Source: a virus
Taxonomy: Duplodnaviria > Heunggongvirae > Uroviricota > Caudoviricetes
Length of the DNA stretch: 64,000 bases
Direction: 5' to 3' (one strand)
Virus record (IMG/VR): IMGVR_UViG_3300029305_007758
Part shown: piece after piece, positions 17,462 through 62,285 of the stretch
Position numbering within the stretch: position 1 is the stretch's first letter
Layout: the number at the start of each line of letters is the position of its first letter
Translations under genes and position numbers: made by a program
The notes under the pieces: model-generated
Seen by the model: the letters and a program-made list of their open reading frames with translations, nothing else
What the model was told of the DNA's origin: nothing
Databases searched by the model: none

Positions 17462-17476
17462 CAAACCATATTTATT
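17462..17476 (+). promoter_or_regulatory. motif-B promoter-like element (AACCATATTTAT)
   Basis: tcaaaccatatttatt, about 35 nt upstream of ATG 17508. Confidence 0.5.
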
Positions 17477-25388: not shown

Positions 25389-25484
25389 AACAATTACGCT
25401 ACGCGATCAATATGTTGCGTAGCTTTTGTTTTGCGCAAAATCAAACCATATTTAATGAAACAAATAAACTTGGAGGTTTAGAAC

Positions 25485-29189: not shown

Positions 29190-29334
29190 CTCTTATAATT
29201 GCTCAAATAATTTGAGTGTATCTTTTTCTTTTAGAAGCTGGCACATTTGTGTCAGCTTTGTTTGCGTTTAAGTATATTGTTTTGCAAAACTTTTTTCCAT
29301 ATTTAATGTAACAAAATAATAAGGAGGTAACAAA

Positions 29335-31143: not shown

Positions 31144-31243
31144 AAAAAATGAAACTTTTACTACGTTTCTGTTTTAAATGAACCTATTGCATATATCACG
31201 TAAAAAATACGTAGAAAAATTCAAGTCAAAAGGAGACAAACAA

Positions 31244-32827
31244 ATGATTATTTTAATCGGTATCGTAGCAGCAATTGTATTAGTAGCAGCTGTAGCAGCA
31301 TGTACTTACAAGGTGGCAGATGTAGACAAAGCATTAATTATCACAGGTGGCAAAGAACCAATCATCAAAGTATCCGGTGGTGGATTTGTAATCCCTATCA
31401 TTCGTAAACATTCATATTTCGATCTTTGCATGTTAACAGTTCCTGCAGACAGTGATGAAATTAAAACAAAAACCGCTGTTCCAATTATTGTTGACTGGAC
31501 AGCACAGATTCGTCCAAATTCAAAGAATGTTGATTTATTAAAGAAAGCCGTTGTGTCATTCAAAGAACGTGGTCAGCAGGGTATTATCGATGACGTAAAA
31601 TTAACACTTATGGGTTCTGTAAGAAATATCGTTGCAACAATGACACCGGAACAGGTGCAGAACGATAAGGATACATTCAAGCAGAATATTGTAAAAGAAG
31701 TTACAGATGAATTAGAAGAAATGGGTCTCGAACTTGTTTCATTAAACATTCAGGACATTACCGATAGAAACGGTTACTATGACGATATTGCAGCAAAAGA
31801 CCGTGAAGAAAAACGTAAAGAAGCAGAACGTGTACGTGCAATCGCTGATCAGCAGATTCGTGAACAGAACGCTGCATCAAACAAGATTGCTCAGGAAAAG
31901 GAGCTTGAAACAGAGCTTCAGATTGCGGAAAAGAAACGTGACAATGATTTAAAGAAAGCAGAATTTAAAGCTGAAACAGACAAAGCGAATGCTGATGCTG
32001 CTGTATCAGGTAAATTGCAGGAAACAATCCGTGCGCAGGAAATTGCTGCACAGGAAGGTCGTGTTGCAGTTGTTAAGCAGGAACAGGCAAATTTAGCAGC
32101 ACAGAAGCGTCAGGAAGTTGTAAAGACAGAATCAGAAACAAATAAAATTCAGGCGGAAATTAAAGCATCAGAGGATGCAAAAGTAGCTGAAATCAATGCA
32201 GAAGCAAATGCAAAAGTAGCTGAAACAAAAGCGGCCGGTGAAGCAAGAGCTCTTGAAGCAGAAGCACTTGGTAAGGCAAAAGCAGCAGAAACAGAAGCAC
32301 TTGGTAAGGCGAGAGCAGTAGAAGCAGAAGCAACTGGTGAGGCAAGAGCAGTAGAAGCAAAAGCAACTGCAGAAGCGAATGCTATTAAGGCAAAAGGTGA
32401 TGCAGAAGCAGACATTATTGCTAAAAAAGGTACTGCAGAAGCGGAAGCAATTAGAGCAAAACTGTTAGCAGAAGCTGATGGTGAAAAGGAACTTGCTGCG
32501 GCTCGTGCTTCTAACGAAAAGGTTAACTTTGAAATTGAGAAGTTAAAAATTGAAACAGAAGCCCGCATTCAGATTGCTACAAACACTGCACAGATTATGG
32601 CAGAAGTTGGTAAGAATGCTGAATTCGTTAATATCGGTGGCGGTGCATTGCCGACAGGCGGTACCGGTAACGTATTAATGGATACAATGGCAAGTATTCC
32701 ACAGATGATGAAGCTTCTTGATGTGCAGAATCAGGCACTTAATGGTCGTGACTTCAAAGAGGAAGTTACGGGGTTGGTTGAAGCAGTAGCAGAACCAATC
32801 AAAGGCACTGGCAAGAAAGATAAATAA
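31244..32827 (+). CDS. flotillin-like SPFH/band-7 protein (FloT/YuaG-like) with long Ala/Glu-rich coiled-coil
   Basis: N-terminal TM followed by an SPFH core (LIITGG...VSGGGFVIPI...DLCMLTV). Repeated AEAxGKAxA(V/A)E heptads. AAGGAGA RBS at 31244. Confidence 0.7.
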   Translation: MIILIGIVAAIVLVAAVAACTYKVADVDKALIITGGKEPIIKVSGGGFVIPIIRKHSYFDLCMLTVPADSDEIKTKTAVPIIVDWTAQIRPNSKNVDLLKKAVVSFKERGQQGIIDDVKLTLMGSVRNIVATMTPEQVQNDKDTFKQNIVKEVTDELEEMGLELVSLNIQDITDRNGYYDDIAAKDREEKRKEAERVRAIADQQIREQNAASNKIAQEKELETELQIAEKKRDNDLKKAEFKAETDKANADAAVSGKLQETIRAQEIAAQEGRVAVVKQEQANLAAQKRQEVVKTESETNKIQAEIKASEDAKVAEINAEANAKVAETKAAGEARALEAEALGKAKAAETEALGKARAVEAEATGEARAVEAKATAEANAIKAKGDAEADIIAKKGTAEAEAIRAKLLAEADGEKELAAARASNEKVNFEIEKLKIETEARIQIATNTAQIMAEVGKNAEFVNIGGGALPTGGTGNVLMDTMASIPQMMKLLDVQNQALNGRDFKEEVTGLVEAVAEPIKGTGKKDK

Positions 32828-33207: not shown

Positions 33208-33241
33208 CAGTAAATATATGAAACAAAAGGAGAAAAACAAA

Positions 33242-34186
33242 ATGAAAAAGAAAATCTCACTTATTGCAATGACACTTATTATGATGTTTAGTATGACGGC
33301 TTGTATCAAACCGTATGATACACCAGAATTTATTACCATCGAAGCATCACAGACAGCATTCCTTATTCCGTTAGTAGGTAATACAGCAGATCAGGCATCG
33401 TTCGAATCAGAAGAACTTTTAGCAGAAGCTAAGGTTGCAGCAAAAGAAATTCAGATTCCACATCGTTGGGTGCAGACAGCTCGTTTCAGTTGGGTTGGTG
33501 AATGGAGAGATGCTGCTAAGCTGATTGTAGTTGAAAGAACACCGGTTACGCGTGAATGGAACTCCGGTAAAGATGCTGGTACATCAACTAAGAATCAGGC
33601 AATTTATGCTGAATCAAAAGAATCTATTGGATTCTCAGTTGGTATGAATATTTCGGCTCAGATTTACACAGAAGACGATGCTGTTAAATTCTTGTATTCA
33701 TATAATAACAAATCGTTAGAAGAAATTATGGATACAGAGATTCGTGCCAGAGTTGAGTCAAAATTCGTTGAAGAGTGTGCGAAATATACTCTAAATGACA
33801 TTCTTTCTGCAAAAGAAGATATCATGAAAGTCGTAAGAGACGATGTTACGACTTACTTTGAAGAAAAGGGTATCACCATCACCGTTCTTGGTATGAAAGA
33901 TGGTATCGAGTATGATGATCCGGAAATTCAGAAAGCAATTAATGAAAAGTTTTCTTCTGAACAGTTACTTGTAACACAGCAGAATAAAAATGCGGTTACT
34001 ATTTCTGAAGCAGAAGCAAATGCTCAGGCAAAATTAATTGAAGCAGAAGCAGAAGCGGAAGCAAACAGAAAGATTGCGTCATCTTTGACTCAGACATTAA
34101 TTGATAAAATGATGTATGAAAAATGGGATGGCAAGCTTCCTGAAGTGCAGGGGTCTGATGCAACAATCATTGACCTGACACCGTAA
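33242..34186 (+). CDS. SPFH/band-7-like lipoprotein
   Basis: Lipobox MTAC. C-terminal EAEAEAEANRKIA repeat typical of HflC/stomatin-like proteins. Confidence 0.55.
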   Translation: MKKKISLIAMTLIMMFSMTACIKPYDTPEFITIEASQTAFLIPLVGNTADQASFESEELLAEAKVAAKEIQIPHRWVQTARFSWVGEWRDAAKLIVVERTPVTREWNSGKDAGTSTKNQAIYAESKESIGFSVGMNISAQIYTEDDAVKFLYSYNNKSLEEIMDTEIRARVESKFVEECAKYTLNDILSAKEDIMKVVRDDVTTYFEEKGITITVLGMKDGIEYDDPEIQKAINEKFSSEQLLVTQQNKNAVTISEAEANAQAKLIEAEAEAEANRKIASSLTQTLIDKMMYEKWDGKLPEVQGSDATIIDLTP

Positions 34187-36015: not shown

Positions 36016-36363
36016 TTATAATGAATTAACAAACGTTTTGAAACATTTTTTATCGTTATTAAACAAAACTGTCACAATATCATTAACTTCTTGGTTAGCA
36101 TATGTTTCCATTTTTATAATTGCTTCATAATAATGATAACGTTCAATTTTATCAACGCTTATAAAACCTTTCTTTTTTAGTCTGGTCATAAATGTTGCAA
36201 TTGTTTGTATTTTCCATTTCTTGTTGTACCGTTTTCTTGCAATTTCATCCACTTCAAACAATGTTAACGGTCTCTTCGCGTCCCATAAAATTGACATAAT
36301 CAATCTTTCTGCTTCCGGCAATTTCATGTCAAAAATCTCCTTGTTTTCATTTCGTAATTTCAT
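36016..36363 (-). CDS. BlaI/MecI/CopY-family winged-helix repressor-like protein (second paralog)
   Basis: LIMSILWDAKRPLTLFEV...KKWKIQTIATFMTRLKKKGFIS. Terminator at 35966..36000. Confidence 0.5.
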   Translation of the reverse strand: MKLRNENKEIFDMKLPEAERLIMSILWDAKRPLTLFEVDEIARKRYNKKWKIQTIATFMTRLKKKGFISVDKIERYHYYEAIIKMETYANQEVNDIVTVLFNNDKKCFKTFVNSL

Positions 36364-38522: not shown

Positions 38523-38632
38523 AGTTTCATATCCTCTTGCTTTCATAATATTATGGAATAATAATCATCCCATATTATAAATATGGTTACAATTTTTACA
38601 AAGCAAAAGAAAAAGACAGACACAATGTCTGC

Positions 38633-39810: not shown

Positions 39811-41139
39811 TTAATCTTCTTTTGGCAAAACATGTTCACTTTGATTACTTGTATCAGAAATGGATGTAATACTGTCAATGATTGTTAAAATGTCGTCATC
39901 ATCTTGCGACTTTGAAAATGTGAGACTACGATTTCGAAGCAATTTATCTTTTCTTTCTTCCGGCTCTGTTCCAGATATCTTTCTTAAAACTGCATTTTTA
40001 AGTTTCTGACCTGCGGAAAACTGTAATCGTCTCACCTCAATTGCATCAATATCTAATTGTTTTGCAACTTCATTTGGATTACATTTTTTATCCAAATCAA
40101 TAATCTCATGGTCATCAATTAATATTTTAAATCCATTAGATAATTCATACACTTTCTGTTCAATTTCTGTTAAACAACGAAAGGCTTCGATTAATTCTTC
40201 TACACGTTCTTGTGACATAATACGCTCTTCCGGCGTTTCAAATCGACTTTGTTTACGTTTGTTTGTAGCACTATTTTCATCATCAATTCGAGTCATTGTA
40301 TTTTCTGCTAAAATTCGAGCTGATGATAATTTAATCTGTTCCGGAGTTAATTCTTCTCCATGACGTTTGCAATAATTTGAAATCATATGAACTGTAGGTT
40401 TAAGTCCTTGTTCCAATAATGCTGTTTGCGCTTTACTTACAATGCGGTCAACTCTCATCGTAGTTTTAGATGCTCTAAAATTCTTCTTTGCTTCAAAATT
40501 ACTGATAGCGTCCTGAATTCTGGTTCGATAATAAGTTGTTAATTCTGCCTTGTTATAATCGTATTTGTCAATATCGTTCCAAATATATACCCAACAATAA
40601 GACATTGCATCTTGTATATCCTCATGCATTTTTGCAATATTTACATAATGATGCGCATGTTTTTTATAAAACTGTTCCACTTTTACTCGCACGAAGTTTC
40701 TAAAAAACATATAAAATGCTTCTTTTGTTCGATTCATGGCTTCTTCTGATGCACTTTTTTCGTAATTCTGAATTGCATCAATAATAAAATGTTGAGCCTC
40801 TAATACATGTTTTTTTGCAAAGAATTCTGCATATTTAATTGCTTCAATTTGTGTTTTTTCTGTCGCAATTCCATAGTATAAATCTTCTGCAATACTAAGA
40901 TCAAAATCACCTGTATATTCGGTCGTTTTTTGTTCTCTTACTTCATCGTTCGTAAATAAAGAATATTCGTTATCATCAAATTCTTCATAATCAACAAAAT
41001 CATCATCTTCCTCTTCGTCAAATAATTCATCTGTTGTATCAAACGTTTCGTCATATTCTTCATCACCAGGGCCATAATCAAACGCCCCAACATCATCAAT
41101 GTCATCATATAAATCGTCTTCTACATACTTTGTTCCCAT
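39811..41139 (-). CDS. divergent sigma-70-family-like factor with acidic N-terminus (tentative)
   Basis: Region-2-like EDIQDAMSYCWVYIWNDIDKYD...TYYRTRIQDAI. Region-4-like HTH NEVAKQLDIDAIEVRRLQFSAGQKLK. Confidence 0.4.
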   Translation of the reverse strand: MGTKYVEDDLYDDIDDVGAFDYGPGDEEYDETFDTTDELFDEEEDDDFVDYEEFDDNEYSLFTNDEVREQKTTEYTGDFDLSIAEDLYYGIATEKTQIEAIKYAEFFAKKHVLEAQHFIIDAIQNYEKSASEEAMNRTKEAFYMFFRNFVRVKVEQFYKKHAHHYVNIAKMHEDIQDAMSYCWVYIWNDIDKYDYNKAELTTYYRTRIQDAISNFEAKKNFRASKTTMRVDRIVSKAQTALLEQGLKPTVHMISNYCKRHGEELTPEQIKLSSARILAENTMTRIDDENSATNKRKQSRFETPEERIMSQERVEELIEAFRCLTEIEQKVYELSNGFKILIDDHEIIDLDKKCNPNEVAKQLDIDAIEVRRLQFSAGQKLKNAVLRKISGTEPEERKDKLLRNRSLTFSKSQDDDDILTIIDSITSISDTSNQSEHVLPKED

Positions 41140-45498: not shown

Positions 45499-45559
45499 CT
45501 TTTACAGAATCTTTTTATCTGTATAAATATGGTTCGTAAGTTTGCAAAGTTAAAATATG

Positions 45560-46973: not shown

Positions 46974-47048
46974 ATGTACATCTCCTTTTAACTATTATTT
47001 TGTTATATAGTTAAATATGGGATGCCATTAAAGCAGTTAGCAAATGTG

Positions 47049-47333: not shown

Positions 47334-47377
47334 AAAAAAAAGATGCTACAGATTTCTCTGTAACATCTCTTTGTTGT

Positions 47378-48118
47378 TTATAATTTTGGCTCAAATATTG
47401 CTCTTGGCTTCAATTTAAATTTGTTATCATGATGACGTTTCATAATTGCTTGTTTAACTCTTATATCGCTACATAATCCGGTGCGAATAAAACGATCTAA
47501 GTCTTTATAACTGAATCCAAAGTTGTCTTCATCTGTTTTACCACAAAGACCATCGGACGGAGTTTTGTCGACCAAATAATCTGGCAATCCTAAGTAATGT
47601 CCGATTGCAATTACCTCTGTCGCAGTTAATCCGCCAAGTGGAGCAAAATCACCTTCACCATCTCCGCCAATTGTAAAATATCCAATATAATCTTCGGATA
47701 AATTACATGTGTTTACCATGCGACCATTTTCACATTGGCAAATGGCGCGAATTACTTTGGTACGTTCACGTGGTGGCAAGTTTTCTCGGGCCTGTTTTGT
47801 GATTTCGATGCCGCATTTTTCAAGCTCACGATAAGTAGCTTCTACACCGTCTTTAATGTTTACAGTGTAATTTTTGATACCTAAGTATTCGCAAACAGCA
47901 ATTGAGTCTGCAATATCTGCCTGTTCGCCATTTGGCAACATTACACCGATGACTCGTTCTTTTCCTAATGCACGAACGCATAATGCTGCTGCAATGGTGG
48001 AGTCTTTGCCACCCGAGATGCCTAACGCAGCATTGCAATCTGACCCATTTTTCTTGAACCATGCCTGGATCCAACTAACCAGATCATTTGTTGTTTGTTC
48101 TACGTTGAAATTGTACAT
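47378..48118 (-). CDS. nadE: NH3-dependent NAD+ synthetase
   Basis: PP-loop LGISGGKDSTIAAALC (SGGxDS). Size and overall layout fit NadE. Start trimmed to MYNF, which has a GAGGAAG RBS. Confidence 0.85.
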   Translation of the reverse strand: MYNFNVEQTTNDLVSWIQAWFKKNGSDCNAALGISGGKDSTIAAALCVRALGKERVIGVMLPNGEQADIADSIAVCEYLGIKNYTVNIKDGVEATYRELEKCGIEITKQARENLPPRERTKVIRAICQCENGRMVNTCNLSEDYIGYFTIGGDGEGDFAPLGGLTATEVIAIGHYLGLPDYLVDKTPSDGLCGKTDEDNFGFSYKDLDRFIRTGLCSDIRVKQAIMKRHHDNKFKLKPRAIFEPKL

Positions 48119-48263
48119 ATTTCTTCCTCGCTTCTTAATCAATCTGTTTTGCACCTAACAGGTTCAATAACCCCGTTTCAAATGCAGTTGTTACACATTT
48201 TTCTGCGTTATCAACTTCATAGTTTACTGAATCAACTCTAACTTCGAAACACTAGGATAAATC

Positions 48264-49469
48264 CTAGTGTTCCATTCTCCAATTGATACAACGCTGTAAG
48301 TAATCAACATATGCATCATTTTTACACATACCTTTACCTGGAGTATCACTGATTTTTGCACAATCACTACCATTCACATTTGTTACTTTCATAACAATGT
48401 TTAAAGCTGGCGCAAATGTATCATTTGAGATATAAGTTCCAATTCCAAATGCAACTTTTGCTCTGCCACAGAAGTGACGCGCAATTTTATCTGCCTTTTC
48501 AAAGTTTAAACTGTCACTAAATAACAGTGTCTTTGTTTTTGGATCGATACCAAGTGATTCATAATGACGAATCATTTTTTCGCCCCATTCAATTGGATCA
48601 CCACTATCATGGCGTACACCGCTAAAAAGTGATGCAAATGTTAACTGAAAATCTTTTAAGAATACATCAGTTGTAATTGTGTCAGTTAACATGATTCCAT
48701 TTAATACTCCGTATTCTTTAACCCATGCTTCCATTGTGTACCAATTTGAATAAGCAGGATTGTGTTTCGGATTACCCTGACCAATTGCCATATTGAGCTC
48801 ATGCGCCATGGTTCCGACAGCAGTCAGTCCAAATTTCTTTGCCAGATATACATTACTTGTTCCAACAAAATTGCTGCAACCATACTTTGTTTCAGCTAAG
48901 CGTTTTACAGCATATTCCTGTGCCTCAGCTGATAAACGTCTACGAAGACCAAATTCACTGAAATTTGCTAAGTAAAGTGGACCACCAACAGCAATCTTCT
49001 TTAACTTTTCTTCGAAATGTTCTTTGAAGCTAATAAGCAATTCATCATAATCATACATCATACGGAAATATACTTCATTTACGATTGCAAGCACCGGAAT
49101 TTCATACATAGATGTATTGAGCCAAGCGCCTTTTGCTTCAATGGATAAACCACATTCAGCATCTGTTGTGATTGTAAAATCTTCGAAACGAGGACTCCAG
49201 AGACGTAAGAAATCAATGTATGACTTTTTGAGCCATTTAATTGATGCAAGATACTGTAATTCTTCTTCAATAAATCGAAGATCGCAGTACGCTTTAATCT
49301 GTTCAGTAATCTCTTCCACAATTGCTGGTGTGAAATATACATCCTTGTTACGACATTTAAATGTCCATGTTGTTTCATAATCAGAAAACTGATGGAAGAT
49401 ACACTGACCCATGCTAAGTTTGTACAAATCTGTCTCTAAGAGACTTGTAATAATTGGATTGAGTTTCAT
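48264..49469 (-). CDS. pncB: nicotinate phosphoribosyltransferase
   Basis: SLLETDLYKLSMGQCIFHQF, GTSNVYLAKKFGLTAVGTMAHE, GVRHDSGDPIEWGEKMIRHYESLGIDPKTKTLLFSD and NIVMKV..NG...AKISDTPGK are collinear with the conserved blocks of class-I PncB. 401 aa. AAGGAG RBS. Motif B at 49516..49525. Confidence 0.9.
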   Translation of the reverse strand: MKLNPIITSLLETDLYKLSMGQCIFHQFSDYETTWTFKCRNKDVYFTPAIVEEITEQIKAYCDLRFIEEELQYLASIKWLKKSYIDFLRLWSPRFEDFTITTDAECGLSIEAKGAWLNTSMYEIPVLAIVNEVYFRMMYDYDELLISFKEHFEEKLKKIAVGGPLYLANFSEFGLRRRLSAEAQEYAVKRLAETKYGCSNFVGTSNVYLAKKFGLTAVGTMAHELNMAIGQGNPKHNPAYSNWYTMEAWVKEYGVLNGIMLTDTITTDVFLKDFQLTFASLFSGVRHDSGDPIEWGEKMIRHYESLGIDPKTKTLLFSDSLNFEKADKIARHFCGRAKVAFGIGTYISNDTFAPALNIVMKVTNVNGSDCAKISDTPGKGMCKNDAYVDYLQRCINWRMEH

Positions 49470-49515
49470 TGTTTGTTACTCCTTTTCTTTGTTTATTTTG
49501 TATTTGTTACGATAT

Positions 49516-49525
49516 TAAATATGGT
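49516..49525 (-). promoter_or_regulatory. motif-B promoter-like element upstream of pncB
   Basis: taaatatggt on plus strand, which is accatattta on the gene strand. Confidence 0.5.
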
Positions 49526-49590
49526 ACATATATAAGAAACGAAGTTATTTGTAACAACTTTTGTCACAAATAATCTCGTTTCATTATGTA

Positions 49591-50730
49591 TTACACAGCC
49601 GGTTTACTCATTTCAATCAGTTTCTGTCTCATATCTGCTTCAATTTTCTGTAATTCAGCTTCTGCTGCAACACGTTTCTTGCGACCATCTTCCTGAATTT
49701 TCATTACTTCATCCAATGTTGAAATCAATGTCTGATTTGTGGCCTGTAATGTTTCAATATCTACAATGCCTCTTTCTGCTTCCTTTGCAGTTTCAATTGT
49801 TGCAAGTTTTAACTGTTCCGCGTTTTTCTTAAGTAAGGCATTTGTCATATCACTTACCTGTCGCTGAGCTGCTGCAGCTTCATTTGCATGGTCAACACCA
49901 ATTGCAATTACCATCTGACTCTTCCATAAAGGAATCGTATTCATTAATGTTGATTGGATTTTATCAGACATAATCGTATCATTATTTTGAATTAAACGAA
50001 TCTGTGACGCCATTTGTAACGATACAGTTCTGGAAAGTTCAAGATCGTATATTTTCTTTTCGAATCGATTACACATTTCTGCAAAATCTTTTGCTCTCTG
50101 TGTATCTTCCGGCAAACCACTCTGTTCTGCTTTTTTAAGTAACTCCGGTAATTCTACAGTACGTGCCTGTTCCAATTTTGTTTTGCCAGCAAGGATGTAC
50201 ATAGATAACTCTTTGAAGTATAACAGATTCAAATCATACATCTTATCGAGCATAGCCGCATCTTCTATCAATTCTTCTCGATGCGATTCCATGACGGCAC
50301 AAATTTTGCTAATGTTTTCTTCTGCTTTTGCATACTTTGTTTTAATCATAGCAAGTTTGTTACTATTCCTTCTAAAGAAACCTAAGAATCCGCGGGCTGG
50401 TTCGTTGAATTCCTTTAATTCTGTTACAACATCTGTCAATAACTCTCCAATTTCACCCATATCTTTGGTACGAACGCTACTTAATGCTGTTTCAGAGAAA
50501 TCAGCCATCTTTTTCTGACTGGTAGAACCATACTGCATCACCAATTTTGTATCATTTAAATTAATTTTCTGGGCAAATTCATCCACCATTTTCTGTTCCT
50601 CGGGTGTTAAATTCACTTCTTTTGGAACTTCCACTGGTGTAGCTATTACAACTTCTTCTTTTGTTCTCACATCATTAACTGTATCAAATGTTAATGTTGG
50701 CATTTCTGTTAACATTTTTTCTAATTCCAT
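49591..50730 (-). CDS. telA: TelA-like (toxic anion resistance / KlaA family) protein
   Basis: EEQKMVDEFAQKINLNDTKLVMQYGSTSQKKMADFSETALSSVRTKDMGEIGELLTDVVTELKEF is the TelA signature region. GGAGG RBS. Confidence 0.75.
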   Translation of the reverse strand: MELEKMLTEMPTLTFDTVNDVRTKEEVVIATPVEVPKEVNLTPEEQKMVDEFAQKINLNDTKLVMQYGSTSQKKMADFSETALSSVRTKDMGEIGELLTDVVTELKEFNEPARGFLGFFRRNSNKLAMIKTKYAKAEENISKICAVMESHREELIEDAAMLDKMYDLNLLYFKELSMYILAGKTKLEQARTVELPELLKKAEQSGLPEDTQRAKDFAEMCNRFEKKIYDLELSRTVSLQMASQIRLIQNNDTIMSDKIQSTLMNTIPLWKSQMVIAIGVDHANEAAAAQRQVSDMTNALLKKNAEQLKLATIETAKEAERGIVDIETLQATNQTLISTLDEVMKIQEDGRKKRVAAEAELQKIEADMRQKLIEMSKPAV

Positions 50731-50732
50731 TT

Positions 50733-51371
50733 TTATACCTCCGAAAAATCACTTTTTGTCAAACCATCTTTTGCAAGCACTGTTTTAAGCACCTGTGCGT
50801 CTGTTGTAATATCAATGACATCTACCTGAAATAACTGATTCAAAAGTTCTGTAAACGCTTCATTGACTACATCCATTGTCTTTTCAATTTCTATTTTTGC
50901 AGCAACAACTTCTGTCCCAGGATTTCGAACTTCATTAAATTTCAAATATCCCTGCAGCAATTTAATTGTCATTGGTAAATAATGATTCATTAATTTATAC
51001 ATCTTTGATATTTGGTCCGGGGATTCTTTCAATCTTGCAAAAATCTCTGTCAAAAGATTTTCTGTACAATTCATTTTTTCAGAAATTAATTCTCCTGGAA
51101 TCATATCATTAAGATTATGAATTTTATGAATATATTCGTTCCCTTTTTGAATCATAGATTCGATTTCGCTTAAAGTTTGTTCCATTGGTTTCGTTTCAGC
51201 TTTGAGCTTTGTCTCAGAAACGCAAATTACATTTGCATATGGATCAATTACATCTGTTTCACTATTATTTAATAACGTATTAAGTTGTTTAAAGTTGTTA
51301 TTATCAATTGCTTCTGCTACAGCATTTTTGAATTCTTTACTTGGTTTAAACGGATACCTATTTTTGCTCAT
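50733..51371 (-). CDS. hypothetical protein, possibly XpaC-like (the usual TelA partner in Firmicutes)
   Basis: Immediately upstream of telA with a 2 nt gap. About 210 aa. Assignment is from context and size only. Motif A at 51411..51441. Confidence 0.3.
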   Translation of the reverse strand: MSKNRYPFKPSKEFKNAVAEAIDNNNFKQLNTLLNNSETDVIDPYANVICVSETKLKAETKPMEQTLSEIESMIQKGNEYIHKIHNLNDMIPGELISEKMNCTENLLTEIFARLKESPDQISKMYKLMNHYLPMTIKLLQGYLKFNEVRNPGTEVVAAKIEIEKTMDVVNEAFTELLNQLFQVDVIDITTDAQVLKTVLAKDGLTKSDFSEV

Positions 51372-51410
51372 AATGACTCCTTGTTTGTTACAAACTTTTA
51401 TTTTTCTTTA

Positions 51411-51441
51411 TATATTAGGATCAAACTTTCTTAAAACGTAG
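51411..51441 (-). promoter_or_regulatory. motif-A promoter-like element upstream of the XpaC-like/telA pair
   Basis: Reverse complement reads ctacgtttt aagaaagttt gatcctaatata. Confidence 0.55.
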
Positions 51442-51474
51442 CAAAACCCACGGATTTCCCATGGGTTTGTTGTT

Positions 51475-51924
51475 TTAATTATAATTGTAAAATTCTTGCA
51501 ACGAATATAAATCCTCATAGACACATGGCGTTCCATCAGAATTTGTAAGTGGAGTCATTGAACCACCATCATCGCTATATACCGTATATAAATAAGTATT
51601 CCCTGTTTCAAGATCAACAAGTGTGTACATATATGCGTATCCTTTTGCATATATTGTTTCCTTTTCTACCGGCACAAAACGTACATTGCCTCGGAGTTCT
51701 ACAGAATATCCATCAGGATCTTTTAAATGAAATTCTCTTGTTGTGTTCGTATCATCTGAATTGTAACTATTATTACTTGAATCGTAGTTGTTTGATTCAT
51801 AACCATTACTTGCTGCATAGTCCGAATAGTTTTCATGACTAATTGATGATGTCTGACCACAACCTGTTACGGTAATTATTGTTACAATCACTAATAATGT
51901 CGTTATTACACGTTTTGTATTCAT
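51475..51924 (-). CDS. putative lipoprotein, Asn/Ser/Tyr-rich
   Basis: Lipobox VTGC. Motif B at 51971..51981. Confidence 0.55.
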   Translation of the reverse strand: MNTKRVITTLLVIVTIITVTGCGQTSSISHENYSDYAASNGYESNNYDSSNNSYNSDDTNTTREFHLKDPDGYSVELRGNVRFVPVEKETIYAKGYAYMYTLVDLETGNTYLYTVYSDDGGSMTPLTNSDGTPCVYEDLYSLQEFYNYN

Positions 51925-52041
51925 ATTTATATTCTCCTTTATAATTAATAGATGTATTTTATTGCATTCTTAAATATGGTTCATCAGATAACTCTTTAAA
52001 AAAAATACGAAGCAGGTTAATCTGCTCCGTATTCATTTGTT

Positions 52042-52935
52042 TTAGAAAATCAATGATGCTTTTGTATCCCATTTACTGTATAAATGCCCGTCCGGACGAA
52101 GAATGAGATACTTCACACTGTTTTTACATTCTTTGGACTGTGCCATAGAATCTTCATCAATTACTGTTGAGAAACCTTCCCAATCATAACGGTCTGCACC
52201 ATATTCAAGTGTATCTAAATATTTTCCCTCTGACTTAACTTTATTCTTAAAATACGAAATAAAGTCATGTGTTAAAGATGTAACATTTTCTTTAATCCAA
52301 TCAGCCTGGGGAGTACCATCTTCTGATGTCCATAATGCACGGCACGTAATCTGATCTGCACCAAGTGTTTTGCAACGATTAATAACGGTCTCCAATGCTA
52401 CTGGTGCATCTTCTAACCCTGCAACCATTTTATCATTCATATTAAGACAGATTCGAAGATTCATATTGTGCGCTTTGATTTTGTAACAAAGACCTTCGAT
52501 ACACAAGTTTCCGTCTGGAGTCTGAATCATCTCTTTGTTAAGTAGGTCATCATCAAGACATGCAACCGAAATTGCCATTGTTGTTACACCAATTTCCTGT
52601 AAGAAATCTAACATGTCATCATCGATAAATGCTCCGGATGTCTGCATTTCAATATTAAGAAATGGGTCTTTTAATGATTTGTTTACAACACCAAGTACGC
52701 GTAAGAAATCTTTGTTCTGCTGTGGTTCATTGTTACCTGTAAGCATCAATGTATTGCAGCCATTATCTCTGGCGTACTGTAATCGTTTTTTCATATCTTC
52801 AATGTAACTCATAGTTGTTGCAATTGGTGTGAAGCGGTCTTCATATTCGCCACCATGCATTTTGCTGCAACAGAATTCGCAGTCATTAATGCAACGTTTT
52901 GCTGGAACGCAAATACTTAAGCTCTGAATATTCAT
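52042..52935 (-). CDS. radical SAM enzyme of unknown specificity
   Basis: CINDCEFC (Cx3Cx2C) near the N-terminus, then LTGNNEP (a GGEP-like SAM motif). Start is 1 nt from the pncA stop. Terminator at about 52001..52050. Confidence 0.7.
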   Translation of the reverse strand: MNIQSLSICVPAKRCINDCEFCCSKMHGGEYEDRFTPIATTMSYIEDMKKRLQYARDNGCNTLMLTGNNEPQQNKDFLRVLGVVNKSLKDPFLNIEMQTSGAFIDDDMLDFLQEIGVTTMAISVACLDDDLLNKEMIQTPDGNLCIEGLCYKIKAHNMNLRICLNMNDKMVAGLEDAPVALETVINRCKTLGADQITCRALWTSEDGTPQADWIKENVTSLTHDFISYFKNKVKSEGKYLDTLEYGADRYDWEGFSTVIDEDSMAQSKECKNSVKYLILRPDGHLYSKWDTKASLIF

Positions 52936-52936
52936 C

Positions 52937-53494
52937 TTATCGCACCTCCACCTGACACATCTTCATTGCTTCAATAGCTGTTTTGTGTGACTCTGGAGTT
53001 ACGCATGCGCATGCTTTTTCGATAACGCAAATCTTTGTTTCCGGCACCGCTGCTTTCGCAATAAGTACGTTACTGATAACACAGATTCCGGTACAAACGC
53101 CACAGAAATGAATTTCGTCATAATCAGAAAATTCAAATTTAAGTTTATGTGCCAAAATTTCAGAACCAAATGTTGGTTTCTCAAGAACTATTCCTTTTAT
53201 ATATTTAGACGCAGATGTTAATTTTGAAGTCTGATTTACAATTGCTTCTTTAATATCTTTCTGAATCTCATGACCTTTTGTACCTCTGATACAATGTGGA
53301 ACCGGTAAATTTCTACCTTCCTGTGTTTCCATGTAATTTTCGCCATGAGTATCCTGAGTCGTAATAATTGCATCATACTCACCTGATTCAATAAGCTTAA
53401 TTACTTCCGGTACTGTTGCTGCGCATTCAGCGTTTCCCAATGGTCCTGTTAAAAAGTCGTTCTGCATGTCCACGATTACTAATGCTTTTTTCAT
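52937..53494 (-). CDS. pncA: nicotinamidase (isochorismatase-fold)
   Basis: ALVIVDMQNDF (catalytic Asp). PHCIRGTKGHEI, compare PncA PHCVSGTPGADF (metal site). FCGVCTGICV, compare ATDHCV (catalytic Cys). Confidence 0.8.
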   Translation of the reverse strand: MKKALVIVDMQNDFLTGPLGNAECAATVPEVIKLIESGEYDAIITTQDTHGENYMETQEGRNLPVPHCIRGTKGHEIQKDIKEAIVNQTSKLTSASKYIKGIVLEKPTFGSEILAHKLKFEFSDYDEIHFCGVCTGICVISNVLIAKAAVPETKICVIEKACACVTPESHKTAIEAMKMCQVEVR

Positions 53495-53522
53495 AATTTT
53501 TGTTTCCTTTCATTTACATAGA

Positions 53523-54095
53523 TTAATTGTTATTATTTATCATGTTTCGATAAAACGGCACCGACATTAACTCGGCACGAAGTCTATCGTACATTTTATG
53601 AAGTCTCGGATTTACAAGTGCCATCCATTCTTCGCGGCGATCTTCAACCATGAGCTGTCTTAACATTGTTGCAGAAATTGGAAGTTCCGCTCTGTTAATA
53701 ATAAGCTCAGTTGTGTTTTTAAGATCTTCTTTCGCAAACCAGCTGGAGCGACTCTCATCGTTTCCGTAAATCATGATTTCCGGGTTCTTATAGATATAAC
53801 GATGCACGTTATCTAATAAATAGCGCCCCCATTCTGGACGAATATCATCTTCATTTGTCATATCAGCAAGTCCGTAAATCATAATGTTTGGCGAATCACC
53901 GTAGATTTCCTTTAACATTTCGGTTCGGGTGTTGATGTTAAGTGGATTTCTTTCGGTACCACATTCCTGTGAACTACCTACTAAAATAATCAAACGATCA
54001 CACAACAATAAACCTGTATCAACAAGTTTTTCATGTCCCTTATGAAACGTCTGAAATCTACCAACAATTAATCCTGTATCGTATGGTTTTCCCAT
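53523..54095 (-). CDS. nadM: NadM/NadR-type nicotinamide/nicotinate mononucleotide adenylyltransferase
   Basis: GRFQTFHKGH is identical in pattern to archaeal/bacterial NMNAT GRFQPFHKGH ((H/T)xGH nucleotidyltransferase). IILVGSS. AAAGGAG RBS. Motif B at 54140..54150. Confidence 0.85.
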   Translation of the reverse strand: MGKPYDTGLIVGRFQTFHKGHEKLVDTGLLLCDRLIILVGSSQECGTERNPLNINTRTEMLKEIYGDSPNIMIYGLADMTNEDDIRPEWGRYLLDNVHRYIYKNPEIMIYGNDESRSSWFAKEDLKNTTELIINRAELPISATMLRQLMVEDRREEWMALVNPRLHKMYDRLRAELMSVPFYRNMINNNN

Positions 54096-54139
54096 ATTTT
54101 TACTCCTTTCGTTTGTTTATTATGTGTTTTGTAACAATT

Positions 54140-54150
54140 TAAATATGGTT
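54140..54150 (-). promoter_or_regulatory. motif-B promoter-like element upstream of the nadM-pncA-radical SAM operon
   Basis: taaatatggtt on plus strand. Confidence 0.5.
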
Positions 54151-56770: not shown

Positions 56771-58405
56771 TCAACCATTCGATTTTAAAAATGCTTTATT
56801 GATATACATTTCCTTATCAGCTCTATCAATAATATCATCTATTGATACATCTTTTTTTGAACCAAATGCATACCCTGATGCAATACTAATTTTAACCTTA
56901 TCTGATTTTGCATTAAATTTATCACAAATATCATTCAATCGATTTCTCAATTGTTCCTGTTCTTCTGGGGTTGACATTGAAAAACATGCAGCAAATTCGT
57001 CACCGCCAAAACGGAATACATTATTTTTCCCATATATACTTGACAACACCTTTGCTGAATCACATAATAATTTATCACCAATTTGATGCCCATATGTATC
57101 ATTGTGATATTTTAAATTATTGATGTCAAATGATACGACACATAGATTTTGTAACGGAAGTTTTCCAATTGCATTCATAAATGCAAAACGATTACCAAGT
57201 CCCGTTAATGAATCTTTTAATGCAATCTTCTTATACATTTCCATATTGTGACTTTCATTTATTGTTGCAGAAAAAATCTTAATTTCATTAAAAACTACAG
57301 CAAAAACAGAACATAACAAACTAAGTTCTGTAACAAAACTTGCCATTTTATATTGAACTCCACAGAATGACATGATGACACCAAAGATTGTTACAAATAA
57401 TAGCGCTAGTGCAATTGTTGTTATATAATCATTGTTATCCAATAATTGAAAAATAGCCTGGCAAATAATATATCCTACTATAATAAATACGAACCAAGAA
57501 TATATCGTAACACTAATTTCTGGTAATGGTAATTTAATATCCCAATATATTGAAACAAATTGTGAAGCAATGATTATTATTGCCATTACAAAGTGTGTGC
57601 ATATAAATCCGATACTGGATATTCTTGTCAAATCAGTTATATGTAAGCATAAAAATAATGGTAACAAATAAACCGAAATGTAATACAAAAAATAAAGTAA
57701 TGTATTGTTTTTAACAAACATTTGACCAATATATGTATTACTAATATGCATTATAAAAAATGTAATGCAAAGTAATCCTAAAAACAAAGTAGGCCTTTTT
57801 ACATTTGATGACGCTGTATGTATTAAATGAAATATACATAATATGCTACCAAATGATAAAATTACTACACAAATTAATGTATCAAATAGCTCAGTTCGCA
57901 ATATATAAGATGATATATCATTCGCATATCCACTGTATACATCCAATACGCAAGCATTATCCGAAGTTTGTATCGAAAGTGTTATGCTTTTTGTATCTTT
58001 AGGAATATTTATCACATTCCAAGTAATTTCCGGTAATCGACTTTTTATTTTATCATAAGCATAGTGATAAATAATATTTTCATTCTCGTTGGTTACTGTT
58101 ATAATTGCGTTTTGAGACTGAAATGCAATTGCAGAAATATTGGAAACATCTTTGGTTGTAACAAATTTTTCCTCTTCGCATATTAATTGCCATTCTTCTT
58201 TTATTACAGAACGATTTGCAGCATATACAATTGAATCAGTTTTTTCATTTGATATAAATGCTAAAATCATCATCAATAGTAAAAAACTAAACGTTGTACA
58301 AAACAATATTAAATTTTGTGGTATTTTAATGTCACAACCAAATATTTTATTTGTTTTTTTATTTAAATGTAGATTGTGACCGATTTGTGATATGGTTCTC
58401 ATCAT
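56771..58405 (-). CDS. membrane-bound diguanylate cyclase (multi-TM N-terminus plus GGDEF domain)
   Basis: LTGLGNR, DINNLKYHNDTYGHQIGDKLL, RFGGDEFAACF (intact GGDEF). No RxxD I-site. Start overlaps the upstream stop (TAATG). Confidence 0.8.
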   Translation of the reverse strand: MMRTISQIGHNLHLNKKTNKIFGCDIKIPQNLILFCTTFSFLLLMMILAFISNEKTDSIVYAANRSVIKEEWQLICEEEKFVTTKDVSNISAIAFQSQNAIITVTNENENIIYHYAYDKIKSRLPEITWNVINIPKDTKSITLSIQTSDNACVLDVYSGYANDISSYILRTELFDTLICVVILSFGSILCIFHLIHTASSNVKRPTLFLGLLCITFFIMHISNTYIGQMFVKNNTLLYFLYYISVYLLPLFLCLHITDLTRISSIGFICTHFVMAIIIIASQFVSIYWDIKLPLPEISVTIYSWFVFIIVGYIICQAIFQLLDNNDYITTIALALLFVTIFGVIMSFCGVQYKMASFVTELSLLCSVFAVVFNEIKIFSATINESHNMEMYKKIALKDSLTGLGNRFAFMNAIGKLPLQNLCVVSFDINNLKYHNDTYGHQIGDKLLCDSAKVLSSIYGKNNVFRFGGDEFAACFSMSTPEEQEQLRNRLNDICDKFNAKSDKVKISIASGYAFGSKKDVSIDDIIDRADKEMYINKAFLKSNG

Positions 58406-60291
58406 TAATCTATTCCGTTTTGTTCTCTTACAAATTCGATAAACTCATTTATTGGTAACGCTTTTGAAAAATAAAAACCTTGAATGTAATCAACTCCAAT
58501 ATTTTGCATCTGTTTTAACATATCTTCTGTTTCAACACCTTCTGCTACAGTTTTTAATCCAAGATCATGTGCCATGTTAACAGCCGCTTTCATAACAATA
58601 GATGCTTTATCATTCAAAAAGAATGCACGTGTAATGTTCATATCAAATTTTAAAAATTCAATTGGCATATCAATTACATAGTTTAAGTTACTCTCACCAC
58701 TACCAAAATCATCTAAACTAAAAGATACGCCACGAGAAATTAAAGCATTCATGTTTTCAAGCAAATGTTGTTTTTGTGACAAAACTGCTGTTTCAGTAAT
58801 TTCCAAATTCACGCAATCGGTTGGAACATTATATTTATCTGCAAGTTCATCGTAACGTCCAACAAAAGATTTATTCTCACCATTTTTAATCGATAAATTA
58901 ATTTCAATGTATTCAAGTCCTAAACTTTTAATATCTGTTTGATTTAAAAATTCAAAGGTTTTATCCATGATTACTTCTTCAAGCTCATATATTAATCCGG
59001 TACTTTCTGCAACACCAATAAATGACCCAGGGGGGATAATATTTCCGTTTCTATCTACAATTCTGGTTAAAACTTCCGCAGCAGTGAATTTTTTACGTTT
59101 ATTGGACCAAATTGGTTGTAAATAAATAACAACACGATTTTCTGCAATTGCATCCGTAATCATTTGTTTTGTAGTTTCAATTTTGCATAACTGTTCATAC
59201 TCTTCGTTGCTTACTGTTTTTATAATTCCTGGTACCTTGTTTGTCATTTCATCACTGTATTTTTCATACTCTTTTTCACCAGCATCTTTAATAATTGTAT
59301 AAGCAATTTTTGAAGCAGGTTTATTGCTTTCAAGTGTCTTTTTGATTTCATTTGTTACTTTTTCTGCAAGATTTTCTGTATCCTCAACAAGAAAAACAAG
59401 ATCATCATCTGAATCTCTAAATCCGTATCCATCTTTAGACGCATTCATTCTGTCTGTTACTTTCTTATTGAGAATTGCTTGACTTGCTGCATCAAGCTCT
59501 TCATTTGCCATATGCACTATAATCATGTTGTATCTAATTCCTTTCTTTTTCAAAAAGCGTGCATACATATTTAATGCGTCTTTATTGAATAATCCTGTTT
59601 CACTGTCTATTAACATTTTGGGGTTTTCTAATTCAAGAAACATAACTAAAATTCCTAACGTGGCAGCATAACTTACGATTAATAATCGTGGAAAACACAA
59701 TTGAATCAATGCTGCTATAATCCAAATTGTTATCCAAAAAATAATAACGTTTCTGTATTTTTTTGTTGTAATATCTTTATATCGTATTAATAAATATATG
59801 GTACTGATAATAAATACAAAAGCATATGCATATGTTGCGTATGGTGCTGGACCATAACTATATATTTCATTATTTTCGTTATGTATATATAATGGAACAA
59901 TTGTAATGACGCATATTGCTGATATTGTAATTATCTTTACGTACCATTTAACTATTTTTGTATTTTTTTCATTGCATAATTCTGTATTTTTATCATTTAT
60001 TGCAAAAATTGTATATCCCGTATACGAAAATAACAAAACACACATTGTAACAAGTGTTAACAAGTATAACCTGCAAACAATTTCTGTTAACATTGATTCC
60101 GGATTACTCTGTATTAAATGTATAGAAACAACATCTAATATTAGTCCAAGCATATTGTTAACAAGAAATAAAAAGAACAAGTGATGTTTATCCATATTAA
60201 GCCGTTTGTTAGAAATTGTTGCGTAAATAATGACAAACAACATAACAAATGCACATCCTTGAGTCATTATATTTATCATTTCTATATTCAC
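58405..60291 (-). CDS. membrane-bound c-di-GMP phosphodiesterase (TM, degenerate GGDEF, EAL)
   Basis: EAL-domain residues EVLTR, EITE, DDFGSG, KFD, EGVE, QGFYFSKALP all present. The GGDEF position reads GFRDSDD, so it is degenerate. Confidence 0.8.
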   Translation of the reverse strand: MNIEMINIMTQGCAFVMLFVIIYATISNKRLNMDKHHLFFLFLVNNMLGLILDVVSIHLIQSNPESMLTEIVCRLYLLTLVTMCVLLFSYTGYTIFAINDKNTELCNEKNTKIVKWYVKIITISAICVITIVPLYIHNENNEIYSYGPAPYATYAYAFVFIISTIYLLIRYKDITTKKYRNVIIFWITIWIIAALIQLCFPRLLIVSYAATLGILVMFLELENPKMLIDSETGLFNKDALNMYARFLKKKGIRYNMIIVHMANEELDAASQAILNKKVTDRMNASKDGYGFRDSDDDLVFLVEDTENLAEKVTNEIKKTLESNKPASKIAYTIIKDAGEKEYEKYSDEMTNKVPGIIKTVSNEEYEQLCKIETTKQMITDAIAENRVVIYLQPIWSNKRKKFTAAEVLTRIVDRNGNIIPPGSFIGVAESTGLIYELEEVIMDKTFEFLNQTDIKSLGLEYIEINLSIKNGENKSFVGRYDELADKYNVPTDCVNLEITETAVLSQKQHLLENMNALISRGVSFSLDDFGSGESNLNYVIDMPIEFLKFDMNITRAFFLNDKASIVMKAAVNMAHDLGLKTVAEGVETEDMLKQMQNIGVDYIQGFYFSKALPINEFIEFVREQNGID

Positions 60292-62216: not shown

Positions 62217-62285
62217 ATTAAATATGGTTTTAAGTTCTGCAAAGTAAACAAAAAGGACTGACTTTCGTCAATCCTCTTTGCTTCA

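Follow-up and report, generated by a model that had tools for sequence, protein, structure and literature searches.

A 64,000-nucleotide stretch of DNA from the IMG/VR virus record IMGVR_UViG_3300029305_007758 (hereafter the window) contains a genuine and complete four-function set of NAD+ salvage genes of the Preiss-Handler type, carried on a mobile element. The four genes are all intact and on the minus strand: nadM (53523..54095) encodes a single-domain NadM-type pyridine-nucleotide adenylyltransferase of 190 amino acids (aa), pncA (52937..53494) a nicotinamidase of 185 aa, pncB (48264..49469) a class-I nicotinate phosphoribosyltransferase (NAPRTase) of 401 aa, and nadE (47378..48118) a 246-aa member of the single-domain, ammonia-type NAD synthetase family. 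A preliminary description of the window had placed the open reading frames (ORFs) at these positions and proposed that they cover every step from nicotinamide to NAD+. Each protein indeed matches its expected Pfam family (PF00857, PF04095, PF01467, and PF02540), and coverage of the whole route by the four enzymes together is supported. The gene set is neither the first of its kind nor demonstrably phage-borne. For this window, the analysis chiefly corrects the earlier account: the genes are genuine, and the novelty and the phage label initially attached to them were overstated. What is distinctive here is the use of NadM instead of NadD without NadV, the division of the module over two operons, and the plasmid-like nature of the carrier. 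The analysis established which genes these are, what catalytic motifs they carry, how their operons are laid out, that they come from a host, and how the module is distributed, as set out below.

PncA matches PF00857 with 69 bits against a cut-off of 27 (5.4e-19 in Pfam), and its best solved relatives in a comparison with the PDB are nicotinamidases, namely those of Pyrococcus horikoshii (1ILW/1IM5) and Mycobacterium tuberculosis (3PL1). The catalytic aspartate, metal site, and cysteine originally attributed to the protein are all in place. The triad of D9, K106, and C138 aligns with D10, K94, and C133 in the P. horikoshii enzyme or with the equivalents in 5ZN8, and the metal ligands D48, H50, and H67 fall opposite D52, H54, and H71 of 1ILW. 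All six residues are invariant in an alignment of 104 distinct homologues encoded beside pncB (60 viral, 43 bacterial). An alternative lysine, K91, lies in an insertion found only in the protein of the window. The Asp/His/His metal site is what sets nicotinamidases apart from other isochorismatase-like hydrolases. Homologues of PncA also adjoin pncB in 44 of 80 Lachnospiraceae-type genome loci. The match to the NCBIfam equivalog PRK11609 is confined to the N-terminus and reaches 26 bits, against a cut-off of 174.

The assignment of PncB by sequence is unambiguous. The protein passes the curated cut-offs of TIGR01514 (400.6 bits; cut-off 269.6) and NF003704 (472.9 bits; cut-off 379), has the two-domain architecture PF17767 plus PF04095, and aligns at full length (residues 6-394, 4e-87) with Pseudomonas aeruginosa PncB2 (PDB 1YIR). 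All of the sequence blocks on which the class-I assignment was first based were recovered, and the protein contains the motifs TDLYKL, GTSN, GTMAHE, RHDSGDP, and DTPGK. The GTMAHE of residues 219-224 lines up with that of 1YIR; the conserved histidine of this GTxAHE motif is the autophosphorylation site of the ATP-coupled enzyme.

NadM is a more divergent protein. It matches PF01467 with 41 bits against a cut-off of 21 (2.1e-10 in Pfam) and carries H18-K-G-H21 inside GRFQTFHKGH (residues 12-21), as well as ISATMLR at residues 140-146 (ISxTxxR). The catalytic residues whose loss would have told against the assignments, such as the triad of PncA and the HxGH of the adenylyltransferase, are retained. 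The best matches in the PDB are 9X6F, the Francisella tularensis NadM 2QJT, and the archaeal nicotinamide mononucleotide adenylyltransferases (NMNATs) 1EJ2/1F9A, with NadR-type enzymes also among the best, in line with the NadM/NadR-type identity first proposed. F. tularensis NadM has GRFQPFHKGH as the counterpart of the motif in the window. The best NCBIfam models are all NadM or archaeal NMNAT, and they fall below their cut-offs (NF002243, 56 bits against 127; TIGR01527, 52 against 181), so the protein is best regarded as a divergent relative assigned at the level of the family only. That NadM carries out the adenylyl-transfer step here is best supported by a non-orthologous replacement: in the IMG/VR locus L011, the conserved slot between PncB and NadE holds a NadM 75% identical to that of the window.

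NadE matches PF02540 (4.3e-46) and passes the cut-off of TIGR00552 (150 bits against 64). The SGGKDS PP-loop by which it was first recognised lies at residues 35-40; across 79 homologues, S35, G36, G37, D39, and S40 never change and position 38 is variable (K in 65, V in 12). The protein consists of PF02540 only, with no glutaminase domain, and the Pfam lists of the contig contain no nitrilase-like gene adjacent to it. NadE is predicted to amidate nicotinate adenine dinucleotide (NaAD) to NAD+, or possibly nicotinate mononucleotide (NaMN) to nicotinamide mononucleotide (NMN). The substrate of NadM may likewise be NaMN or NMN, and context favours NaMN, since NadM sits in the NadD slot of L011.

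It is accordingly worth considering whether the last two steps run in reverse, as in Francisella, with NadE working as an NMN synthetase that makes NMN from NaMN, which NadM would then convert to NAD+. NadM-family enzymes use NMN efficiently, the NadM of the window is close to F. tularensis NadM 2QJT, and its NadE scores 105 bits with F. tularensis 3FIU compared with 77 bits for Bacillus subtilis NadE. In F. tularensis itself, NadM in place of NadD accompanies a NadE that acts as an NMN synthetase (PMC3376133). However, the best match of NadE is the P. horikoshii protein 2E18 (115 bits), and the characterised archaeal short NadE, from Methanocaldococcus jannaschii, is a true NAD synthetase without NMN synthetase activity, partnered by a bifunctional NadM. 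In addition, in the sister operons of IMG/VR described below, the same type of NadE (~51% identical) comes after NadD; as NadD makes NaAD, NadE of this type would be expected to use NaAD. Because this NadE follows NadD in the sister operons and the bifunctional archaeal NadM pairs with a genuine NAD synthetase, we favour the classical order and consider the reversed one unlikely.

The NAD genes appear to form two transcription units, rather than the three that were originally proposed. The promoter-like motif then termed motif B is real; it precedes nadM as CCATATTTAA at 54139..54148 (minus strand, 43 nt upstream of the start codon) and pncB as CCATATTTAA at 49515..49524 (minus strand, 45 nt upstream). 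A separate nadE unit did not hold up, as the 145-nt spacer between pncB and nadE contains no promoter motif. With no motif of its own, nadE is probably co-transcribed with pncB, and the two units are therefore nadM-pncA-radical SAM and pncB-nadE. The first is closed by an intrinsic-terminator-like hairpin and T-run at 52003..52034 (minus strand; a 13-bp stem followed by TTTTTTAAAGA) and a similar structure follows nadE at 47337..47372 (minus strand; a 16-bp stem followed by TTTCTTCGTT). The pncB-nadE spacer, taken as a segment of 166 nt, folds at -39.7 kcal/mol (z = -3.7). The palindrome reported ahead of nadE was also recovered, as a 12-bp hairpin without a U-tract across the pncB stop codon (48246..48273, minus strand), and is a possible attenuator or processing site within the pncB-nadE transcript. 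Rfam finds no family in the window, this spacer included, and hence no known NAD+ riboswitch.

Motif B corresponds to the consensus CCATATTTAW, which occurs in 24 exact copies in the window, 22 of them intergenic. At least 20 of the intergenic copies lie 1-64 nt, and usually 20-46 nt, upstream of the start of a gene on the same strand in both arms of the element; the remaining two are ~30-40 nt upstream of small ORFs called by JGI. Examples are found at 17466-17475(+), 25446-25455(+), 29297-29306(+), 38577-38586(-), 45523-45532(-), and 62218-62227(-), and another copy, at 47011..47020, lies upstream of an endonuclease gene. When one mismatch is allowed, the window contains 47 sites against 14.3 expected, a number reached in none of 100 shuffled sequences. 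Many copies are preceded at 17 nt by TTGYTT, giving a sigma-70-like layout. The copies ahead of the NAD genes lack this upstream element and may represent a second promoter class. Candidates for dedicated sigma-like proteins are encoded at 39811-41139 in the window (weak Sigma70_r2) and at L172:15976-16848 (Sigma70_r4), L172 being a locus handle. Two other searches were set aside: a generic sigma-70 consensus scan was uninformative (36 sites, against 49 in shuffled sequence), and the word TGTTACAAA is enriched (20 copies, 2.4 expected) but many of its copies are intragenic, so that CCATATTTAW was preferred.

The genes interleaved with the NAD set, as first read from the window, were confirmed by Pfam. 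The radical SAM gene (52042..52935, minus strand; PF04055, 1.3e-10) is third in the nadM-pncA operon, 1 nt from the pncA stop codon; it has no known link to NAD and no counterpart beside PncA in any related locus. Its identification as a viperin was rejected, there being no match in PADLOC. A unit outside the pathway, at 49591..51979 on the minus strand, separates the two NAD units. It encodes a DUF6440 lipoprotein (PF20037), an XpaC-like protein (PF10112), and TelA (PF05816, 2.5e-116), has its own promoter motif at 51970..51979 (minus strand), and is absent from all related NAD loci.

Both the similarity and the composition of the NAD genes point to a bacterial source. PncB is 71-76% identical to the chromosomal PncB of Butyrivibrio, Agathobacter, Roseburia, and many metagenome-assembled genomes of ruminant-gut Lachnospiraceae. 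Among the 72 genes of the window, which average 32.7% GC, NadE ranks first in GC content, NadM third, PncA fourth, and PncB eleventh; the bacterial loci average 44%. On the strength of this identity and this ranking, we conclude that the genes were captured from a Lachnospiraceae host. We counted the functions found within 6 kb of one another in 80 Lachnospiraceae-type genome loci. The commonest arrangements are pncA-pncB (33 of 80) and pncB alone (22), followed by pncB-nadE (8), pncA-pncB-nadE (6), and nadM-pncB-nadE (5). The full nadM-pncA-pncB-nadE set is found in three, including the Agathobacter chromosomes L101 and L105, and the last three loci have other arrangements.

Complete modules are far more common in IMG/VR, where 158 contigs encode a PncB 72-77% identical to that of the window. 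Among the 80 of these contigs whose loci were counted, all four functions lie within 6 kb in 69, and 61 have the operon PncA-DUF5662-PncB-NadD-NadE, which is complete in no bacterial locus (n=80). The claim that the route is a distinct architecture is consequently not supported: such four-function modules are common in IMG/VR, and complete Preiss-Handler clusters as well as phage pncA were already reported by Li et al. 2024 (PMC11662467). The 80 loci represent ~18 lineages at 95% pncB nucleotide identity, one of which accounts for 55 contigs. In the dominant family (contigs of ~100-185 kb), the neighbours are a CCA-adding enzyme, RNA ligase, polynucleotide kinase, and methyltransferases, which are those of a large lytic phage. 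DUF5662 (PF18907, 1.2e-32), with conserved HD and HH motifs, is encoded at L045:9433-9999 and in 63 other IMG/VR loci. Several GenBank phages have an annotated PncB at 32-41% identity, including Atu_ph07, Phosso, and huge-phage records.

A few further observations concern the traffic of these genes. The window encodes, at 15501-16505 (plus strand) and ~30 kb from the NAD genes, a DUF5662 domain fused to a HAD_SAK_2 'Swiss Army Knife RNA repair' phosphatase domain, with a second HAD_SAK_2 gene next to it (16512-16970). A SPASM-type radical SAM gene at 23206-24294 (plus strand) is 86% identical to a gene in L011; given that this locus also has the 75% identical NadM, gene exchange between the element and a viral contig is indicated. 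The IMG/VR loci L009 and L012-L015 are arranged nadM-pncA-pncB-nadE, exactly as in Agathobacter L101 and L105. In L009, L013, and L015, as in the Agathobacter loci, the NadE at about +2.3 kb is ~27% identical to that of the window. As five IMG/VR contigs share the Agathobacter arrangement, some 'viral' contigs with the module may be host-derived or flank prophages.

The window is part of a 106,228-bp JGI contig, Ga0318466_10004279, of which record positions 161-104,553 were read (104.4 of 106.2 kb). The carrier is probably a complete extrachromosomal mobile element of ~106 kb from a Lachnospiraceae bacterium of the rumen or gut. The contig consists of two strand-pure arms that meet at ~34.3 kb in the window (record ~52.5 kb), within 0.6 kb of the midpoint (53.1 kb), and a second assembly yields a contig of 106,235 bp; both facts suggest that the replicon is complete. 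That the region might prove to be host chromosome had been raised at the outset, and the high identity (~75%) of PncB to chromosomal genes and the clustering of pncA-pncB-nadE on chromosomes would suit a chromosomal or chimeric contig. Against this, the same gene order recurs in independent contigs from several samples, and GC content is 32% compared with a mean of 44% for the genome loci. About 100 ORFans lie in two strand-pure arms under a private promoter motif, genes for replication and partition are encoded on the element itself, and the backbone is not found in 185,579 species-representative genomes. We judge the region to be a mobile element; a chromosomal carrier is very improbable, and a host-chromosome or chimeric assembly hardly credible.

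Whether the element is a phage or a plasmid is less clear-cut. The preliminary description took the genes to be phage-encoded. This was not upheld: precomputed Pfam calls and four PHROGs scans, covering essentially every ORF of at least 60 aa, detected no family of capsid, portal, terminase, tail, or lysis proteins within the 104.4 of 106.2 kb covered, plasmid-like genes are present, and the lineage is absent from IMG/VR. Only four proteins of at least 400 aa (435, 442, 503, and 1486 aa) are left unexplained on the contig, too few to build a tailed virion. An actin-like partition protein of the ALP/ParM type (L178:5271-6287, outside the window; PF17989 ALP_N, phrog_691 4.5e-36) and a VirD4-like type IV coupling protein (19800-21167, plus strand), preceded by a PcfJ-like protein (17508-19721, plus strand), are the plasmid-like genes. 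The coupling protein matches PF02534 (5.9e-31) and is 27-30% identical to plasmid VirD4-like proteins; its best NCBIfam model is conju_CD1115, at 212.6 bits with a cut-off of 250. It was discarded as a classifier of the type of element, being equally distant from plasmid proteins and from homologues of uncultured 'Bacteriophage sp.'. No Pfam family for a VirB4 ATPase or a relaxase occurs on the contig as read, so the element may be mobilisable rather than self-transmissible. It seems likely that the carrier is a virion-less plasmid or a phage-derived plasmid; a phage whose structural genes are undetected or off the contig is the less likely, though still a serious, option.

The replication genes comprise DnaE, a DnaQ-like exonuclease, a DnaG/DUF3854 primase, RecD2-like and SNF2-type helicases, a flap endonuclease, and LigA. 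LigA is an NAD+-dependent DNA ligase (phrog_3869 1.6e-75; NF005932 3.2e-75; PF03120 plus BRCT) whose C-terminal two-thirds are encoded outside the window at L178:1-1191 (record 161-1351), where the gene is cut by the end of the contig. If the replicon is circular, the N-terminal part would be expected in the last 1.7 kb at the other end.

On this evidence, we consider it probable that the element has a working, host-derived NAD+ salvage set on two operons of its own, that its carrier is plasmid-like, and that the set raises or buffers NAD+. Genes captured from Lachnospiraceae hosts would be expressed from the promoters of the element as nadM-pncA-radical SAM and pncB-nadE. PncA would convert nicotinamide to nicotinate and ammonia, and PncB would combine nicotinate with phosphoribosyl pyrophosphate (PRPP), at the expense of ATP, to give NaMN. 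NadM would then convert NaMN to NaAD and the ammonia-type NadE would use ATP and ammonia to form NAD+ from NaAD. The module would raise or buffer the NAD+ pool of the cell for the benefit of the element, the extra NAD+ would feed LigA and replication, and the loss of NAD+ caused by host defences could be blunted. We infer the enzyme activities from family membership, and likewise infer the order of substrates and the selective role.

Several points weigh against this reading. The assignments of NadM and PncA are weaker than those of the other two enzymes, since the former scores under every NCBIfam NadM cut-off and the latter misses that of PRK11609; single-sequence AlphaFold2 models of the two proteins were unusable, with predicted local distance difference test (pLDDT) scores of 36 for PncA and 42 for NadM. 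NadM enzymes generally favour NMN. An unrelated unit of three genes interrupts the layout, in contrast to the compact operons found elsewhere. It is also not obvious what benefit a second copy would bring, because the likely hosts already have pncA-pncB. With respect to the carrier, divergent virion genes may escape detection, and the coverage extends to 104.4 of the 106.2 kb. Phage-like features include dozens of ORFs in PHROG families, the dedicated promoter motif, ribosomal protein L9, the peptidyl-tRNA hydrolase Pth2, DnaE, the primase, and the helicases, as well as NrdD and T5orf172 in more distant relatives.

Were the element a phage, the module could be a dedicated counter-defence that regenerates NAD+ from nicotinamide set free by NADase effectors, to be placed beside NARP1, NARP2, and NARP3. 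The nicotinamide that PncA uses is what defence NADases (Thoeris, DSR, SIR2-type, and TIR-type) release, and complete modules are enriched in IMG/VR (69/80, against 3/80 bacterial loci). In a phage family of ~160 kb, the operon lies among DNA methyltransferases and RNA-repair genes, a typical counter-defence neighbourhood. In the element of the window, the promoter motif recurs throughout and many ORFs match PHROG families, and a counter-defence role was also suggested by Li et al. 2024 (PMC11662467). On the other hand, the contig has no detected virion genes, its partition and coupling proteins are plasmid-like, and its lineage is absent from IMG/VR. Four steps that cost several ATP equivalents plus PRPP would presumably be slower than NARP1 or NARP2. 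The NARP papers are silent on this route and no experiment ties it to escape from defence. PADLOC found only generic AAA similarity among the neighbouring genes, and no defence-related neighbours. LigA on the same element is a housekeeping and simpler reason for the module. Counter-defence is a plausible hypothesis for the role of the module, and the specific case of a phage with a dedicated system is, in our view, rather doubtful.

At the other extreme, the module could be a plain accessory by which a large plasmid provides a rumen bacterium with niacin or nicotinamide salvage, and play no part in conflict or replication. The genes are host-derived and GC-rich relative to the element, the partition and coupling proteins are plasmid-like, and other genes of cell physiology are aboard (GGDEF, EAL, PilZ, TelA, SPFH, an energy-coupling factor (ECF) S component, and an acetyltransferase). 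Yet pncB is already linked to pncA and/or nadE in 58 of 80 genome loci, which would often make the module redundant, and its recurrence in large viral contigs suggests that the mobile element is what benefits. The NAD genes are also driven by the promoter motif of the element. A purely host-directed benefit is therefore also an unlikely explanation, and we retain the reading of a salvage set that serves the replicon.

No relatives of the 1486-aa protein, the coupling protein, or DnaE were found in IMG/VR, in the JGI metagenome collection, or in 185,579 species-representative GTDB genomes, and the 1486-aa protein has no match in PLSDB or INPHARED. A profile search of IMG/VR with the helicase returned only matches of at most 34% identity with no shared synteny, and megablast of the region and of L045 found nothing among the phages of INPHARED or the plasmids of PLSDB. 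In the same and similar samples there are related contigs of 130-158 kb, and the ALP partition protein is conserved in one such element of 136 kb from the same sample (L181). No tRNAs were found. The 1486-aa protein (L178:14175-18635, partly past the end of the window) is encoded between the RecD2 helicase and the primase and has an N-terminal coiled coil and membrane segment. An NlpC/P60-like DCSGFV...GHTEIF motif was recognised in it by eye; it belongs to no Pfam or PHROG family, has few relatives, and shows weak partial similarity to phage-tail-lysozyme, amidase, or peptidase-domain proteins (P0005, P0006).

Among the other cargo is a cyclic di-GMP set, unusual for a phage, which comprises a membrane GGDEF cyclase (56771-58405) and an EAL phosphodiesterase (58405-60291), both on the minus strand of the window, and a PilZ receptor (L178:8258-8926). 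Ribosomal protein L9 (L172:5969-6412; TIGR00158, 115.7 bits against 58.6) and Pth2 (L172:1628-2080) are encoded outside the window. Each arm encodes one winged-helix repressor of the BlaI/Penicillinase_R type (phrog_1077), at 10174-10503 on the plus and 36016-36363 on the minus strand. Two SPFH/Band-7 proteins (31178-32827 and 33218-34186) close the plus-strand arm; the GC content of the first gene, 40.4%, is at the top of the range for the window and suggests another recent acquisition from a host. The ECF transporter S component (5151-5666, plus strand) was considered as a niacin importer (NiaX) and rejected, as its best matches are folate and riboflavin types, below their cut-offs. The element also encodes sigma-like proteins and an acetyltransferase. 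Two paralogues of 120 and 125 aa (193-555 and 853-1230, plus strand) share a near-identical C-terminus, ...APF(L/I)VCEWNDDLEKLEMLLKETSETLYEMYQERL, and look like a recent tandem duplication.

Several bacterial defences deplete NAD+, and NARP1, NARP2, and NARP3 have been shown experimentally to rebuild it; reports of the deamidated four-enzyme route have so far come from annotation only. Our analysis adds that the route is common and compact in large viral contigs, where a conserved DUF5662 gene travels with it, and that NadD and NadM are interchangeable in the same operon slot. It also adds that the route occurs on a replicon with partition and coupling proteins, its own NAD+-dependent ligase, and no detected virion genes. 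The route may counter NADase immunity or may simply give a mobile replicon self-sufficiency in NAD+. In the boldest interpretation, PncA-PncB-(NadD or NadM)-NadE would be a fourth, widespread NAD+ reconstitution counter-defence, used by gut phages of ~100-200 kb, with DUF5662 possibly a component, and by a virion-less, plasmid-like element of 106 kb from rumen Lachnospiraceae. We think this improbable. If true, the element would be the first plasmid-type replicon to rebuild NAD+ against NAD+-depleting immunity, which includes the plasmid-triggered SPARTA and SPARSA, and the rule that viral NadM always partners NadV would be broken. The compact five-gene DUF5662 operon, which is widespread in large gut phage contigs, is a better experimental lead than the window.

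Among the closest of the systems already known are the jumbo phages of animal guts. Li et al. 2024 (Microbiome 12:268; PMC11662467) found that 174 of 668 such phages encode all of NAD+ synthesis, via either salvage or the Preiss-Handler route, with a pncB-nadD-nadE cluster in Kuafu_71, phage-encoded pncA, and LigA among the NAD+ consumers. The route was thereby already published at the level of annotation. Like the window, these phages come from animal guts and combine pncB, an adenylyltransferase gene, and nadE with NAD+ consumers such as LigA. However, Kuafu_71 uses NadD rather than a single-domain NadM, and the phages keep their genes clustered whereas the module of the window is divided over two operons. 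They also exceed 200 kb and the Kuafu hosts are Bacteroidota, in contrast to an element of 106 kb with a Lachnospiraceae host and no detectable virion genes. The PncA-DUF5662-PncB-NadD-NadE operon of IMG/VR (e.g. IMGVR_UViG_3300045988_123311; gut contigs of ~100-200 kb) has the four functions of the window in the same order, the same low GC (~32%), and related proteins (PncB 72-77%, PncA ~45%, and NadE ~51% identical). It differs in its compactness, as a single operon that includes DUF5662 as a conserved fifth gene and usually NadD, and shares no backbone genes with the element.

The experimentally supported pathways rely on different enzymes. NARP2 and the NadV-NatV system of KVP40 likewise start from nicotinamide, end with a NadM-family adenylyltransferase, and rebuild NAD+, but they use an amidated two-step route via NMN that needs NadV and a NadM-Nudix Nmnat. 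The deamidated route of the window needs PncA, PncB, and NadE, and its NadM, which lacks a Nudix domain, shares no more than 29% identity with the NadM-Nudix proteins of phages. According to its Pfam lists, the contig encodes no NadV/Nampt, PncB being the sole protein of the NAPRTase family, and this occurrence of NadM without NadV breaks the rule of Iyer et al. that pairs the two in viruses. NARP1 (Adps plus Namat) and NARP3 (PnuC plus NadR) also restore NAD+ in phages, from ADP-ribose plus nicotinamide and from imported nicotinamide riboside, respectively; no PRPS-like Adps, Namat, PnuC, or NadR kinase, and no second protein of the phosphoribosyltransferase family, appears in the same lists.

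Cellular systems provide parallels as well. The archaeal pairing of NadM with a short NadE and the Francisella pairing of NadM with an NMN-synthetase NadE resemble the window in using NadM for NadD together with a single-domain NadE. These are housekeeping systems with low identity to the proteins of the window, and between them they offer documented cases of either order for the last two steps. The chromosomal pncA-pncB(-nadE) operons of Lachnospiraceae and the pncA-pncB1-nadE operon of P. aeruginosa have the same enzymes in the same adjacency, but are chromosomal and regulated by the host, and in 77 of 80 loci no adenylyltransferase belongs to the cluster. The P. aeruginosa operon is induced by the jumbo phage PA5oct, which shows the route to be of consequence when large phages infect, and the Lachnospiraceae operons are the likely source of the genes in the window.

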